From Lama glama (taxonomy: Eukaryota), in the NCBI GenBank assembly GCA_028534125.1, contig CM052837.1:37262001-37326000 (forward strand): a stretch of 64,000 nt of DNA, read 5' to 3'. Made by a program: the position numbers and the translations under genes. Under the pieces are notes generated by a model. It was not told the DNA's origin. It ran no database searches and worked only from the letters and a program-made list of their open reading frames with translations. Positions 35,454 to 64,000 of the stretch are shown here, piece by piece; within the stretch, counting starts at the first letter, position 1; each line of letters opens with the position of its first letter.

Positions 35454-41853
<6,400 letters not shown>

Positions 41854-54332: not shown

Positions 54333-55334
54333 ATGAATTTCCAGGTGACAGGCCTGGGCCTGGACAAAATGAAGCTGGACAGCCCCCAGTCCTTCCTGGA
54401 CCAGGAGGAGGCAGAGGAGGCTGAGGACAGGCAGCTGCTGGAGCCCGAGGCCTGGCGGACCTACGTGGAGCGCCGCAACGCTCTGCGTGAGTTCCTGACC
54501 TCAGACCTGAGCCCCCAGTTGCTCAAGCGCCACCATGCCCGCATGGAGCTCCTCAGAAAGTGCTCCTACTACATCGAGATCCTCCCCAAGCCCCTGGCCC
54601 TGGGTGACCAGAACCCGCTGGTGCTGCCCAGCACCGTGTTCCAGCTCATCGACCCCTGGAAGTTCCAGCGCATGAAGAAGGTGGGCACAGCCCAGACCCA
54701 GATCCAGCTACTGCTGCTTGGGGACCTGCTGGAGCAGCTGGACCACGGCCGCGCTGCACTGGACTCCCTGCTTGAGTCGCCCGACCCTCGGCCCTTCCTG
54801 GCTGGCTGGGGGCTCGTGGAGCGGCGGCTGGCGGACCTGTCGGCCGTCATGGACAGCTTCCTGGCCATGATGGTGCCGGGGCGTCTGCACATCAAGCACC
54901 GCCTGGTGTCCGACGTTGGCGCCACCAAGATCCCGCACATCCGGCTCATGTTGAGCACCAAGATGCCCGTCATGTTCGACCGCAAGGAGTCGGTGGCCTA
55001 CCAGGACTGGGTCAGCCTGCGCTGGTTCGTCACCATCCAGCCAGCCGTGCCCGAGCAGTTTGAGCTGCGCTTCAAGCTGCTGGACCCACGGACACAGCAG
55101 GAGTGCCTGCAGTGCGGCATCATCCCCGTGGCCGCCTGCACCTTCGACGTCCGGAACCTGCTGCCCAACCGCTCCTACAGGTTCACCGTCAAGCGGGCCG
55201 AGAGCTACACGCTGGTGTACGAGCCCTGGCGGGACAGCCTCACCCTGCAGACCAGGCCAGGGCCCCCCGAAGGGCCAGCCCCCAGTCGGCTGGGCAAGCC
55301 AGGCCTGCCCCTGACCACACCTTCCGAGAGATGA
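54333..55334 (+). CDS. FNDC11: Fibronectin type III domain containing 11 (C20orf195), single coding exon, 333 aa
   Basis: ACCATG at 54333 just after acceptor CCCCAG (54322). [53 protein letters not shown]. Confidence 0.93.
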
Positions 55335-55740: not shown

Positions 55741-56059
55741 CACCGCCCTGTTACCACCGCCCCAGTTCCACTGCCCCCAGTACCCCCGCCCCAGTTCCAC
55801 CGCCCCAGTTCCACCGCCCCCAGTTCCACCGCCCCCAGTACCACCGCCCCCAGTTCCACTGCCCCCAGTTCCACCGCCCACAGTACCTCTGCCCCAGTAC
55901 CACCGCCCCCAGTACCACCGCCCCAAGTACCTCTGCCCCCAGTACCACCGCCCCAGTACCACCGCCCCCAGTACCACCGCCCCAAGTACCTCTGCCCCCA
56001 GTACCCCCGCCCCAGTTCCACCGCCCCAGTTCCACCGCCCCAGTACCACCGCCCCCAGC
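55741..56059. repeat. Minisatellite/VNTR, 14-15-bp unit CCACCGCCCCCAGT(A/T), ~21 copies
   Basis: Directly visible array with variant units (CCTCTG, CCCCCG, CCAAGT). Confidence 0.95.
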
Positions 56060-57119: not shown

Positions 57120-60100
57120 TGAAACTAGAGAATGAATCGAGCCCCACAGACCACACCCAGTGTAGTCAGAGACGGTCCAAGAACAGCCCCGACGGGGTTC
57201 CCGTCCTGACCCCAAACCTTCCCAGTGACACTAGAACCACTCCAACCCGAGATGCTCCCTGCCACCAAGTGCCCCAGTGCAGCAGCTCAGGAGGGTGGAG
57301 CGCAGACTCGTCCCCTTTCCTCCCAAGTCTGCACACAAGGCGAGGCTGGCCTGCTCCCAGCCTGGGTGGTAACTGTGCACTGCCACAGCTGGCCCCCCGC
57401 GACCCCTGCTCAGTCTGGCAGTGACCACTGAAGGCCCGTGGGTCCTGCTGAGAGGGGCCCGCCAAGGCGGTGGTAGAAGAGGGCTCTGGACTCTCCCGTG
57501 CTGTCCTGGAAGCCTGAGGGCAGTGAGGTCTTCAGGGAGAGTGTGACTTCCCATAGACTTTCACCTCCGAGGCGGGGCCAGGCTCTGCTGGGCCTCACAG
57601 AGGTCCAGGAGTCAGGACCAGACCGGGCAGCAGCGCAGAAGGTGGTGGTCTCCTGCGAGGGGAAGCAGGAGTCAGAGGTAGCCCTGCCTGCAGGAGGAGC
57701 GGCCCCAGCCCTCCGTCCCTGACCAGCTCTCACCGAGACACAGAGCCCCTCCTGGGCCCGGGCGAGGGCCATGGTCACTTGGATGGGGTCCGCAGTGATG
57801 CCCAGGGCGTTTTTCAGCCAGTTCTTAGTCGGTCGCGGGTCTATGTCACTCTTGTCACAGGTGCGGACCATGCTCACTATAACATAGTGCCACTGGCTCC
57901 CGTGGAGGCGAGGCGAGTCTGGTGAGGCCCCTGCCACCCACCCACCTGACCCCTCGCGCACAGGCCTCCCGCCTAGTGCCAGCCCCACCCTGACTCTTGG
58001 TGATGGAACACACGGTCACTCGTGGAACATCTTCCTGATGCTCAAGTCTCTTGCTGATCTCAGCCAGCTGGGCATTGTAGGGCGTGAGGATGGCAATGTT
58101 CTTGGGGCCCACTGTCCCCCTCAGAGGCAGCTCTCTGGCGATGCAGACCTGAGGGACCAGGGGTGCCGGTGAAGCCAGCCCTGATGTCTGTCCCACCCTG
58201 GGCTCCCTCAGCGACTCTGCCTCCTCCCCCAGGGAGCCCTCCCAAGCAAGGGGTACCAGGGAGGGCCCGGGGGAGGGCCGCCACCACTGCCATCTCCTCA
58301 TCCTTCGCCTTGGAATCCTCACCCTCTTTGTCCGTAGACAGCAGCCGGCTCTTCTGTTTGCTCTGCAAGTGGCCAGAGATGACCGAGCAGCCCTTCTCGT
58401 CAGCGTGGCCCAGGACACTGGGCGGCCTGCCCAGGCCCTGCCAGGTCTTCAGTTCCCTTTCGTAGAACTCCCCTGAGGGGAAGGCACAGATGCGCTCATG
58501 CTGGAAGGCAGGGACAGGAGTCAGGGCCAGGCTGGCCCTCGCCCACCTTGGGCCCAAGAGCTCTGGGCACTCAGCATGTGGTACTGCATGTCCCACAGGC
58601 AGGCACCCCTGAAGTACCTCTGTCACAGATACCGGTCCAGCCCCAGCTTCTGCAGCAGCTCACTCTTGACCACAGGCCGCAGCTGCTTGTGGTCCCCGAG
58701 AAGGACCACCTGGGAGGACAGGCAGGCATGGTCCTGACCCCTCGGCCAGCAGCGCCCCACCCTGGAGCTGCCCACGTATTCCCTGCACCTCTGCACCCCC
58801 AGGGACACACGCCTGGGCTCTCAGCTCCTGCTTTACCCACCTTCTCAGCCTGGGAGAAGTTCACCAGGGGAATGAGGGTCTCTGGCTCCGAGGCCACACC
58901 CGCCTCATCCGCAAGGATCTGCCGGATGTCCAGGTCCCCAAGGCTGGCGGAGCCCGCATGCCAGCACGTGCACAGGACGGTGCAGTGCCGGTCAAGCTCG
59001 AATTTCCAAGCCTGCCCTAGGACTTTCCTGTACCTATGGGGACACCATATGGTCGCCCAGGCTGCACCCCTGCACCCTAGGCCAGGAGGCAGCCCCATGG
59101 CTTCAGCTGCTTACCAGCTGAGGTCCTCCTTGGAGAAGATCTCCCCTTCCTGCAGCCGGGCACCGAGGCCCTGACGTCAGCCGCATGGGCGTTGGAAGAC
59201 TGCCGGACCCGGTGATGCAGGGCGATGCTCCTGCGGCGGGTGGCAGTGAGAAGACCTGTGTGAAGCCGTGTTGGCTCCTGCCCGAGGCAGGGCCAGCTGG
59301 ACAGCCCCCGCCCCTCGCCTCCACCCTGTATAGAACAACAGTGGAGAGGCTGCACCTGAGGGTCTGGCTGGGCCTCCCCACCTGAGGGGTCTTCTTAGGG
59401 GGCCCCTGCTGCCCACACCCGGCACTGGGCACTCAGTGGCCTCCTCCTGCTCCCTGTGCACGCGAAGGGGCTTCAGCTTTGCCCTCCTGCTCAGGAGAAG
59501 TGCTGGGGAAGCCAGGGTGTGAGTGACGGCTCCCGGACCCAGCTCCCCCGGGCAGAGCCCCTCCGGCTGCCCCGGTGCGCCTGCCAGCACGCCACCGACT
59601 GGTTGGAGGGGCTGCAGCACAAGATGGGGGCCCCCACAGCTGGCCACTGTGGGAGCCATAGGCTGGCACCTGCTCCTCGTTTGAGGTGCAAAGCCAGTAG
59701 GCAGTGTGGACACCCAGCACCGTCTTCCCAGAGCCTGTGGGCAGAGCATGGGTTGAGCAGAGCCCCCACCTGCCTGCCTGGGCAGTCTCGCAGCTCCCCC
59801 AAGGTGGGTCCCCCCTGGTGGGCCCCAGATGACCGTGAACTGCTTCTTCAGAGCCTCCCTAACGGCCTTGTTCTGGCTTGGGTTCAGCTTGTGATGGCCT
59901 CCAGGAATGTCGAAGGCTGGTCATCCAGGAAGCTGCTGGGGGTCCCTGAGGAAGGAGGCAGACCTCTGAGGACTGGCCGGGGCAGGGCCGGAGAGGTGAA
60001 GCTGAGGGCTCCCCATCCACCCACCTCTGTGGAGGGGCTGCTGGCTGGCCCTGGGCTATGCTGATGACCCACGGGGATGCACGCTTGAGCCAACGCACAG

Positions 60101-60657
60101 CTTCTTCTTGGCAGCTGGGGCAGGTGGGGGTGAAGATGGATACCAGACACCAGCAGGATCTTCCCGGGCAAGGAGCACTGCCCACGGGCCACCACCCCAG
60201 AAGGAGACGGGGGTTCCCAGCACACCCAGCCCACCCGCCAGCCTCTCCCCGGAAGCCACTCACAGGCCCCGGGCGGTGAAGCGGCCCCAGGCCTCAGCAC
60301 CTCTTCCAGAACCACACCCATGGCCACGTGCTGAAGGAGGAAGGGCACCTGCTTAGGTGCGTCCCGCAGGTTGGCCCAGCCCTCCTTTGGGCTCCAGTCC
60401 TCCGCCAGCCCGGGTGTCACCCAGGTATGTGTGTCGGGGTCATTGTTTCGGACAGGGATGACGCAGCTGGCCGGGGGGCGTGGTGTGGCCAGCAGCCCTT
60501 CGAATCGGATGCACGGGTAGCAGTGGCCAAAGCTGATGTCAATGCCATGCTCCCGGAGGAAGGCGGGCTCCAGGCAGAAGGTGCCCTGCAGCTGCCCCTG
60601 GGGCGTCTGCTCCGCCCCACAGGGTATGGCCACATCCTGCAAAGTCACAGGATCGTT

Positions 60658-60698
60658 CTAAGCCTGGAGTCGGCGCGGGCAGCCGACTCCAGGCTTAG
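60658..60698. repeat. Perfect inverted repeat (17-bp arms, 7-nt loop)
   Basis: CTAAGCCTGGAGTCGGC-GCGGGCA-GCCGACTCCAGGCTTAG. Confidence 0.95.
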
Positions 60699-63600
60699 TC
60701 TTCCACGTCCTGGTGCCAGTCCCGACCCCCCTGGGGCACACAGGGCGAGAAGCCGTCCCCTGGCTGCTCCACGTGCTCCAGGCAAAGGCTGAGGTCAGGC
60801 GCCACAGACCACAGCTGCGGGACTGGCTCCAGGAGCCTACGCTACAGGGCGGCACTGAGCTGGAGCTGTACGTGCAGTGTATCCCCACTACCAGCTCCCG
60901 GGCTGCCTCCACGAAGGGCCGCAGGCGCTCCACCTCGCCTGTCCCGGCTCCTGCTGCTGGGGCTCGAAGCTGGGCTCGCCCCACTGTCCACCCTCGGCTT
61001 CTTCATCAGCCTCAGCAGCTGCTGCCACTGGGTGGCGTCCACAGGCTGGACACATGGGTCAAGCGGGGTGCCGGGCAGTGGGGGGCACCGCCCACCGGCC
61101 TGCGTGGAGTAAGCGTGGTGCCGCCATAGGAGCTGCAGCTGCAGCCACCTGGCCAGCCACAGGAGTGCCTGGCCGGCCGCAGGGGTGCGTAGCCGGCTGC
61201 AGGGGTGCTTGGGTGGCTGCAGGGAGCTGCAGTGCACGGGGTCGAGGTCCAGAAGGGTCTTGTGGCTGGCTGGGAAGAACAGCTTGAAGCAGGTGTCCTC
61301 CGCGGCCACCACAAAGCCCAGCTTGCTTTGCGGTTGGGTCTTGAGCCGGGTGGCCAGGTTCAGGCCGCGAGCCCAGCGCTGGAAGTTCTGGGCGCACCTG
61401 TACTGGCCACTGAAGTCCTGGCAGAGCTCATCAATGTCTCCGGGCGTGCAGGGGGACCCTCCTTGGCCCAGTGCCAGCAGGATCTGCCGCTGCAGCACCA
61501 CATCCAAGTACCTGCAAATGGGTGAGGTGGCCCAGGTGTACCTGTCCACCTGCAGCAGGTAGTGGCCATCCAGCTCCATGTCCTGGCGGCTGAAGACTGT
61601 GCGGCCTTGGGCCCTGCACAAGTCAAGGAGGGCAGGAGCCAGGCAAGGGTGCTCATCGTCCGTGGCGATGAGATCCGCCAGTCAGATGAAGCCCTGGGCG
61701 TGGGCTGCAAGCTGGAGTTACCTCTAGACGGAGACCAGGATGTGGAGCTGCAGGTCTGGGGAGATGTAGGAGCTGAAGCTGCCCAGCCGGTGGTGGCAGA
61801 GGTGTGGGGACAATGGCACCCAGTCCTCCTGGTCCTGGCTCAGGGCTCGGAGCCAGCTGAAGCTGGGCTCGCGCTGCACCCGCAAGGGTGTGACCCCCTT
61901 TGTACCCTCACTGTCCACCAGGAATTTGGCCACCTGGCTGTTGAACTGGACCATGTACTCCTCGACCATCCTGTGGGCCACGCGGAAGCCCAGCACGCTG
62001 TCCCCGTCAGCTGCTTGTAATGACCGTCGCCCCTGAGGCGGCGCTGGCACAGCAGGCGGGAGAAGTAGCACGCGGCTGCCACGCAGGCGTGCACAGAGTC
62101 CAGGCAGGCTGGCAGCTTGAGGCCGGCGCCCCGGTGCCCCCGGTCACCTGCTCCGCCTCCGTACGGGTCAGCTGGTGGTCAGAGCAGATCACAGCGGGTG
62201 CAGAGCACTCGCTCTTGAGCTGGCTGCTGCCCTTCTCGGTCGTCAGGAAGCGGGAGACGGCTAGGTGGTGCTGGCCTGGCAGGAGGCTGGCTGGCAGCAT
62301 GGACCCTGCTCCTGGTCAGGGGCGTAGATGGTGGCCCCCCCCGCCTGCAGGCCTCCAGGCCCAGCGCCCTCATCCCTGGGCATGCAGCTGGCCATGTCAG
62401 CGGTGTGCGTGGCCACCTCATACATGGGGCCCCGGTCCTGGGCGCTGATGGCGCCGTCCAGGTTGCAGGTGAGCGGGGGTCCACGGCGAAGGCCAGGAAG
62501 CTGCTGCAGCCCTCCAGGCAGCTGGGCACCCGGCTGAGCTCAGCGTGGTGCCTGTGCAGCGCCTCGCGGACCGAGGCCGGGTGTGGGGAGGCTCCTTCAG
62601 CCTGCAGGCCAGGTCAAAGATTTGGAGACTGCTCCCAGGTGGTGGCCTCGGGCAGCACCTTTAGGACGCCCAGTGGGTAGTAGAAGTGCTCCCGCCACAG
62701 AAGGACACACACCCAGAAGAGGCGGCAGTGCCGGGCCTCCACCGAGAGCGGCTCGTGCCCCACGCGCTGCACGCGGCCCTGCAGAAGGTGGTGGACAGGC
62801 ACCTGCAGTGGGTCCTGCAGCCCAGCCACGAAGACCTTGGTGGCACAGCCATTGACGGGGGTCATGACGCAGGGGTCCCACTCGTCCACATGGCACACGA
62901 ACGCCAGCTGGCGATGCTCCCTCTGATGAATGCTCAGCACGCAGCCCTGAGGCCACCCGGCCCAGCTGAGGACCTGCACCAGCGCCTCGTCCCCAGGGAA
63001 TGCCATCCCGCAGTGCAGGCGGCCCTTGAGCTGGTTGGGCCCAAACTTCCCATCGTCCAGCGGACGCTCTCACCTCCCGGAGGCTCTCTCGCAGGAAGGC
63101 GCAGCGGCAGTGCTGCTGGGGCCACTTGTGGAGAAGTTTCTGCTGTTTGGCTTCCGGCAGGTTCACATACTGCCACGCCGGCTGGGGAGACAAGGGCCGG
63201 GCGAAGCTGTCCAGCAGCCCATCCTCCTGGACGGTCACTGTCACGTCCCGGCTGTGGTCCAGGAGCTGCTGCGGGCGGGGCTCGTTGCTGCCGAGCTCCC
63301 TGTCAGAAGGCCAAAAGCCCACAGGGCCCTCGGGCTCCCTGATCTCTGGGGCTGACGGTCCTGCCACAGCGCTTCTGGGGACCATGCCCCTCCCACATGT
63401 GCTGTGGCCCACCCCCCACTACCCCCTCCTCTGGAACAGTGTCCTTGGCATCTGCTGCCACAAACCTTTCTGTTTCTTGGGCCGCAGGCTGCCAGCAGCT
63501 GGCCCAGCTCTGCTTCTGGATCTGCTCCAGCGACAGGCCCTCGGGGCAGACGGCGCCGTGCTCCACACACTCACGGAGGAAGCTCCCCCAGAGCTTGCTG

Positions 63601-63817
63601 CAAGCCTTCAGGGAGCAGAGGGCCACAGCGTTGCCCACGCCGCCACCTGGGCCTGCGTGTGGGTCGTGACGGTGCTGAGCACGCGGGCGTCCGTGAAGCA
63701 CCCTGGGGCCGGTGCCCCCGGCTCAGCAGGCTGCGGGTGGTGTGCAGCGCGCCCAGCACCACCACCCGGAAGTCCCGCCTGAGAGGGGGGCAGTTACAGG
63801 GTCAGGCTGGGCCAGAA

Positions 63818-63875
63818 GAGGGAGGGGAAGGGAGGGGGGAGGGGAGGGGGAGGGGACAGGAGGGGAGGGGAGGGG
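63818..63875. repeat. G/A-rich low-complexity tract (GGGGA)n
   Basis: Directly visible, in a short HELZ2 intron. Confidence 0.8.
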
Positions 63876-64000
63876 CCCCGCTTCCCCCAGCACCGATCAC
63901 CCACCTGGCAGATTCTCAAAGCTGCCCACAGACACCTGGCCCAGGTCCCTCTTCCTCAGCTCCTGCCTCAGCGCGCTCACTGGAGACACACCACCAGGTC

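Follow-up and report, generated by a model that had tools for sequence, protein, structure and literature searches.

HELZ2, a conserved interferon effector gene, is present in the llama (Lama glama) only as a broken gene at its syntenic site. The DNA analyzed (hereafter the window) was the 64,000 nucleotides at positions 37,262,001 to 37,326,000 of contig CM052837.1, assembly GCA_028534125.1. The 3′ part of HELZ2 occupied positions 57532–64000 of the window on the reverse strand, and its 5′ exons lay just to the right. Because translation from the conserved ATG halted after 72 codons and every domain was broken, no working helicase-exoribonuclease is made. The locus is very probably an old unitary (unprocessed) pseudogene, the single HELZ2 of a camelid, and its status as such is apparently unreported.

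Identity and Structure of the HELZ2 Locus

Frameshift-aware spliced alignment was performed against a profile of 16 full-length, intact mammalian HELZ2 sequences, and against pig, horse and primate HELZ2 singly. In total, 2,755 of the 2,957 profile positions aligned in order through the zinc fingers, helicase 1, RNB and helicase 2. The ~2,755 aligned codons showed 59–62% identity and were spread over 19 coding exons, from an ATG at contig position 37330904 to a stop at 57534–32 of the window. The 18 introns (~70–750 bases each) were kept at the orthologous site, so the locus is no retrocopy. Gene order in the window and the 50 kb to its right was EEF1A2, PPDPF, PTK6, SRMS, FNDC11, HELZ2, GMEB2, the right-hand 50 kb containing the 5′ exons of the same HELZ2 gene and then GMEB2. 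Human 20q13.33 has the same order, an EEF1A2-PPDPF-PTK6-SRMS block followed by FNDC11, HELZ2 and GMEB2. The locus is the HELZ2 orthologue at the syntenic site between FNDC11 and GMEB2, and in a quick tree search of 21 rows it grouped with pig HELZ2 (SH-aLRT 100).

Mammalian HELZ2 (PRIC285/PDIP1) comprises zinc fingers, an SF1B helicase (helicase 1), an OB fold, an RNB exoribonuclease domain and helicase 2; the protein degrades structured RNA (PMC10516660) and restricts LINE-1 in human cells (PMC9839780). The llama locus kept the domain order, gene neighborhood, short introns and 62% identity to horse, pig and rhino over ~2,750 codons. Unlike mammalian HELZ2, it had no open frame, its splice sites were broken and its catalytic residues were changed.

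Features of the locus were as follows (window positions unless stated), with the state of the dromedary and wild-camel gene models where these were compared:

57532–64000, reverse strand: HELZ2 pseudogene, 3′ 13 of the 19 coding exons (end of helicase 1, OB fold, RNB, helicase 2).
37326204–37330904 of the contig, just right of the window, reverse strand: 5′ six exons of HELZ2, by spliced alignment.
60264–63778, reverse strand: large HELZ2 exon (end of helicase 1, OB fold, RNB, post-RNB region) with 5 stops and ~18 frameshifts.
61682–61726, reverse strand: three in-frame stops in RNB (TAG 61726–24, TAA 61720–18, TGA 61684–82).
60695–60697, reverse strand: TAA stop beside a short deletion, both missing from the camel models.
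59813–59814, reverse strand: donor GG for GT; its intron interrupts the helicase-2 Walker A motif.
59579–59580, reverse strand: donor GC, a weak minor-class site not counted as a lesion.
58623–58625, reverse strand: TGA stop in helicase 2, where the dromedary model has Trp and the references Phe.
58573–58574, reverse strand: donor CT for GT.
57901–57902, reverse strand: acceptor CG for AG before the penultimate exon, which the dromedary model skips.
57612–57614, reverse strand: TGA stop replacing an Arg codon of the last exon, where the dromedary model is in a shifted frame and 19 of 19 residues are identical.
60842–61579, reverse strand: residual 245-codon open reading frame (ORF) from a derived ATG, ending at TAG 60844–42.
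61148–61224, no strand: 20-bp minisatellite, 3.8 copies, inside the large exon.

Inactivating Lesions

Over the whole gene, 10 stops (11 against the primate reference) and 39–40 frameshifts were counted, depending on which of four references was used, and 7 stops and 25 frameshifts fell within the window; at exon edges these counts are underestimates, as the aligner can hide an indel by shifting an intron (57735, 63776). The longest unbroken run was 236 codons, and an open frame of ~2,900 codons was absent.

A prior reading of the window from its letters alone (the sequence-only reading) had listed six stops, nine frameshifts and four aberrant splice dinucleotides. All six stops were present and in the HELZ2 frame in the alignment to the 16-mammal profile, and the three that it had placed in the RNB domain, at horse codons 1884, 1886 and 1898, lay within the Pfam RNB span (1617–1972). 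Eight of the nine frameshifts were recovered within 10 bases (63722, 63639, 62471, 59915, 59626, 59591, 59400 and 59165); at the ninth, 57735, one base was by eye missing before the GT donor at 57733–32, a loss that the aligner had masked by shifting the intron. The four splice dinucleotides agreed with that reading, and three of these sites were dead (GG at 59814–13, CT at 58574–73, CG at 57902–01), whereas the GC donor is by itself no lesion. Its entries were real; the list was incomplete, the window holding an additional stop (60844–42) and the larger number of frameshifts given above.

Missense change was also extensive. Of 1,074 columns invariant in 15 non-artiodactyls, 238 (22%) were changed in the llama locus, compared with 0.3–5.8% for intact non-artiodactyls that were left out in turn. 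The next fastest at invariant sites was the full-length HELZ2 of the shrew Suncus (5.8%). In helicase 1, the Walker B Glu was replaced by Gln (DE to DQ) and the motif VI Arg by His; in RNB, one Asp was replaced by Gly (DD to DG) and an Arg by Cys. Helicase 2 kept its Walker B motif, while its Walker A motif was split by the dead donor. Human E668, D1355 and R1923 are the equivalents of changed residues, and mutation at these positions has been used, or found, to impair activity (PMC9839780; PMC10516660). The residual ORF contained only the last 33 RNB positions and carried the Cys that replaces the equivalent of human R1923.

Lesions Are Not Assembly Errors

Two neighbors served as controls:

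35460–41853 (lower coordinate approximate), reverse strand: PTK6, intact eight-exon neighbor.
54336–55334, forward strand: FNDC11, intact downstream neighbor.

PTK6 had a 448-residue open frame over seven GT-AG introns, and FNDC11 was a single open frame in which both Pfam models were covered end to end. The sequence-only reading had called five neighbors lesion-free; this holds for PTK6 and FNDC11, while SRMS, EEF1A2 and PPDPF were seen as single exons with the expected motifs only.

The 35 lesion sites overlapped 16.2% of the 31-mers of positions 57500–64000, so lesions private to this assembly would limit other samples to ~84% of words. Eighteen runs besides the possible source, from 8 studies and 4 organism codes, held 0.93–0.97 of 694 sampled 31-mers, and the lesions are thus not assembly error. 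No RNA run was listed among those sharing words with the stretch, which says nothing about expression. The opposing reading, of a living gene in a GC-rich subtelomeric region obscured by sequencing or assembly errors, can point to the 65–68% GC content of the region, to the fragmentation of the assembly and to an alpaca annotation that treats HELZ2 as coding. Such errors could yield neither 22% missense change at invariant sites nor lesions common to camels, and the adjoining PTK6 and FNDC11 were intact. For the bulk of the lesions this reading is already refuted, and its overall probability is close to nil.

A Single Copy in the Genome

DNA queries from the RNB exon and from the 3′ exons gave no match in the assembly outside this locus, and beaver protein queries (N-terminal and post-RNB parts) found no other locus apart from one DIS3L2-like piece. 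In the RNB family search, three other chromosomal loci matched, which we take from their sequences to be DIS3, DIS3L and DIS3L2. The search of the whole assembly for a second HELZ2, including the region towards GMEB2, found none. The sequence-only reading had left open a dead tandem paralogue of a live copy; this is not supported, given the right flank, with its 5′ exons of the same gene followed by GMEB2, and the lack of another copy in the assembly. A duplicated pseudogene is likewise not supported, as no live parent copy exists in this assembly.

A related alternative is that the locus is a dead duplicate and that a live HELZ2 is missing from the assembly, which may indeed be incomplete. 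It is extremely improbable, as the locus sits at the orthologous site with all its introns, the two DNA queries, two protein queries and RNB family search found no other copy in the assembly, and the protein searches gave no camelid protein beyond two camel fragments.

About 20 small contigs (e.g., C96999, C437410, C984619) matched the end of the RNB profile. A match on C96999 was considered as a second HELZ2 and rejected, its sequence being DIS3L2-like; its content of the last DIS3L2 exons suggests a repeated or collapsed DIS3L2 3′ segment.

Decay Shared With Camels

The best protein match of the longest open piece was a 542-residue dromedary “HELZ2,” and a HMMER search of all 50%-identity representatives added a 312-residue wild-camel fragment; the camel comparison rests on these two predicted proteins. 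In-frame segments were 92% identical to dromedary (31 differences in 399), and dromedary and wild camel were 97% identical (124/127 and 96/99). These identities place the host among camelids but outside Camelus, which among living genera leaves Lama or Vicugna; scaffold numbers up to 37 (camelid n = 37) and the four organism codes sharing 93–97% of words agree with this.

Both camel gene models begin at the derived ATG at 61579. The dromedary model ends in a shifted frame, and the wild-camel model switches from a shifted to the true frame at the window's frameshift near 60966. The CT donor is common to dromedary, because the dromedary model continues across it in 11 identical residues. The TAA at 60697–95 sits at the edge of a local deletion and, since neither occurs in the camel models, stop and deletion are specific to the window's lineage. 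Both models emerge from the minisatellite at 61148–61224 out of frame, in frames that differ between the two, so that the camels have breaks of their own. The minisatellite copy numbers implied by dromedary, wild camel and window differ; that of the window by chance brings the sequence back into frame after an older frameshift.

At 170 of the sites invariant in 15 non-artiodactyls, 28 changes were common to window and dromedary (3 of them also to pig), 6 were window-only, 3 were camel-only and 2 differed in both, a stem-to-tip ratio of 4.9 (95% interval 2.4–11). Most of the decay predates the camel-llama split, because the camel fragments share lesions and these 28 changes with the window. The sequence-only reading had proposed an old lineage-specific loss at the syntenic locus, and this is supported. 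The Camelus-Lama split lies near 16–17 million years ago; on that date, the decay would cover most or all of the camelid stem. Since the split, window and dromedary differed at 11 of 170 invariant and 20 of 229 variable sites (p 0.45; a small sample, at the protein level only), and evolution over this period looks neutral.

Separate and recent losses in Old World and South American camelids would account for the lineage-specific lesions (TAA 60697–95, TGA 58625–23 and a wild-camel frameshift near 60475). They would leave unexplained the shared CT donor, frameshift near 60966 and small in-frame indels, together with an excess of common over single-tip changes of the size given above, and have next to no probability.

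A residual role for the locus, as a non-coding RNA or as a fragment of 245–312 residues starting at 61579, is very unlikely. In its favor, at least 127 codons of the ORF are uninterrupted in all three of window, dromedary and wild camel, and a single TTTC-A-TTTC resembling an interferon-stimulated response element, which may be chance, lies 2.7 kb upstream of the HELZ2 ATG (~7606 of the right flank). The C-terminus of the fragment, however, is in a different frame in all three, nine tenths of RNB is missing from it, and changes after the split were not depleted at conserved sites. With ~50 lesions in 2,957 codons, a 236-codon gap between lesions is unsurprising.

Pig HELZ2 and the Wider Artiodactyl Pattern

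Pig HELZ2 (UniRef F1RMM8 and its cluster), known as gene models, was sister to the llama pseudogene in the tree. The pig was changed at 10.7% of invariant columns, between the 0.3–5.8% of the others and the 22% of the window. Forty-five invariant columns were changed in both pig and window, and 20 of these carried the same residue, vs 0–4 for six control species. The 20 included the helicase-1 motif VI arginine (R1162H, horse numbering), which is Arg in 111 of 111 other sequences that have a residue at this position; the pig had also lost the helicase-2 QYRM arginine (R2734C, horse numbering), which is Arg in 106 of 106. Unlike the pseudogene, pig HELZ2 models were full length (~2,900 aa), with the Walker A, Walker B and RNB residues kept. 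To judge by these substitutions, pig HELZ2 is also degenerating. Helicase motif changes found only in pig among 112 sequences were QGPPG to HGPPG, CGPSN to CSPSS, QYRM to QYCV and TRAQ to THAQ.

Full-length protein searches with bat and pig queries were evaluated over the best 120 of 298 and of 178 matches, respectively (100 and 95 mammals). Among the matches listed, the sole artiodactyl cluster was that of pig (all 15 listed of its 65 members being Sus scrofa), and no ruminant or whale HELZ2 protein occurred, though birds at 44% were found. Against reading much into this absence, the search was word-seeded and limited to 8,000 candidates, and by name it also lacked rabbits, xenarthrans, tree shrews and monotremes. 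Across 265 HELZ2-like proteins, the 20-residue signature was present only in pig entries and the dromedary fragment, the rest having at most 2 of 20; no unnamed match is therefore a hidden ruminant or whale. In a first scan of metagenome contigs for host-derived HELZ2 DNA, none of 394 pattern matches was confirmed; in a second, the one match confirmed out of 237 was a distant UPF1-like helicase at 33%, and no HELZ2 was found. Only 9 papers naming HELZ2 together with cattle were found, and none was a cattle study by title.

In an interferon dataset (PMC5747502, supplement 7), HELZ2 is listed as induced in seven of ten species (human, rat, horse, dog, two bats and chicken), cow, sheep and pig being the exceptions. 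For pig, the missing entry may reflect annotation, since HELZ2 is named among the genes differentially expressed in infected pig gut (PMC6719071).

Loss of HELZ2 in ruminants and whales is likely, given the absence from the protein searches. The broader proposal is an almost order-wide loss in Artiodactyla: after a collapse of constraint on the stem, no working gene would be left in camelids, ruminants or whales, and pigs would retain a remodeled copy with both helicases lacking a conserved arginine, perhaps acting as a nuclease only. We put the chances of this proposal at about even. Under a camel-first root of Artiodactyla, this pattern would represent a convergent double loss. If camelids, ruminants and whales share an inactivating indel that pigs lack, the loss would be single and would serve as a rare genomic character supporting a pig-first root, a topology cited in bioRxiv 10.64898/2026.09.20.752922. 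If the order-wide loss is real, under either root, most large livestock and all whales would run the interferon response without an effector that is strongly induced in humans, rodents, bats, horses, dogs and chickens.

Proposed History of the Loss

The residues shared with pig suggest that constraint weakened on the artiodactyl stem. The frame was then broken before the Camelus split, probably early on the camelid stem, and the locus has apparently drifted neutrally since. Any HELZ2 transcript would be a target of nonsense-mediated decay. A likely cause, to which we give roughly half the weight, is that other RNA helicases and nucleases induced by interferon, such as MOV10, ZNFX1, ZAP and ISG20, made HELZ2 redundant. 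Second, and clearly less probable, is a shift in the PPAR-linked lipid metabolism of herbivores. Loss of HELZ2 following the extinction of LINE-1 is not supported, as open ORF1 frames persist: of the 150 best of 11,355 candidate LINE-1 ORF1 relics, 134 had no stop and 12 of these lay in frames of at least 300 codons. These 150 were far cleaner than HELZ2, with its one lesion per 60 codons.

Several points weigh against an old unitary pseudogene. Support from other samples consists of word sharing, not of a read pile-up, and no lesion was seen directly elsewhere; the camel lesions are deduced from predicted proteins, camel DNA lying outside the comparison. The assembly is in 1,072,352 pieces, and the genome search scores only the best candidates. 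Finally, an alpaca study reports a HELZ2 variant, p.Cys1440*, on chromosome 19 (PMC10873959), so an alpaca annotation must include a coding model reaching 1,440 codons or more; we take this for a frame-corrected model.

The loss resembles the IFIT3 deletion and IFIT2 pseudogene of cetaceans and the XAF1 deletion of cats, which are losses of interferon-stimulated genes (PMC5747502), and the AQP10 unitary pseudogenes of Cetartiodactyla (bioRxiv 10.64898/2026.09.20.752922): in each, a single-copy gene decays in place in one mammalian clade. HELZ2 differs from these cases in being otherwise kept from fish to mammals. As an event the loss is familiar and ordinary; what is new and notable is the gene. 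The literature yielded no account of a mammal losing HELZ2, though subscription papers, bioRxiv supplements or TOGA tables may record such a loss, and HELZ2 was not named in the supplements of three mammalian gene-loss screens (PMC5865188, PMC6386725, PMC6760925). PMC10516660 notes its absence only in lineages such as insects.

If the pseudogene reading is correct, the camelid family has lived for tens of millions of years without HELZ2 while LINE-1 copies with long open frames were still accumulating, a natural knockout. The HELZ2 “stop gained” variant p.Cys1440*, ranked as high-impact in suri alpaca (PMC10873959, Table 1), would be without effect in a gene already dead, and the fragments named HELZ2 in camel databases call for correction. 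Should the loss extend to ruminants and whales, it would leave most livestock with a gap in innate immunity and may have a bearing on how Artiodactyla is rooted.

Surroundings of the Locus

No CpG island was found within 13 kb upstream of the HELZ2 ATG. The scaffold holding the window is 37.8 Mb long and ends ~0.5 Mb from it; the assembly totals 2.35 Gb. A 15-bp tandem array of 21 copies was located at 55752–56058, between FNDC11 and the 3′ end of HELZ2.

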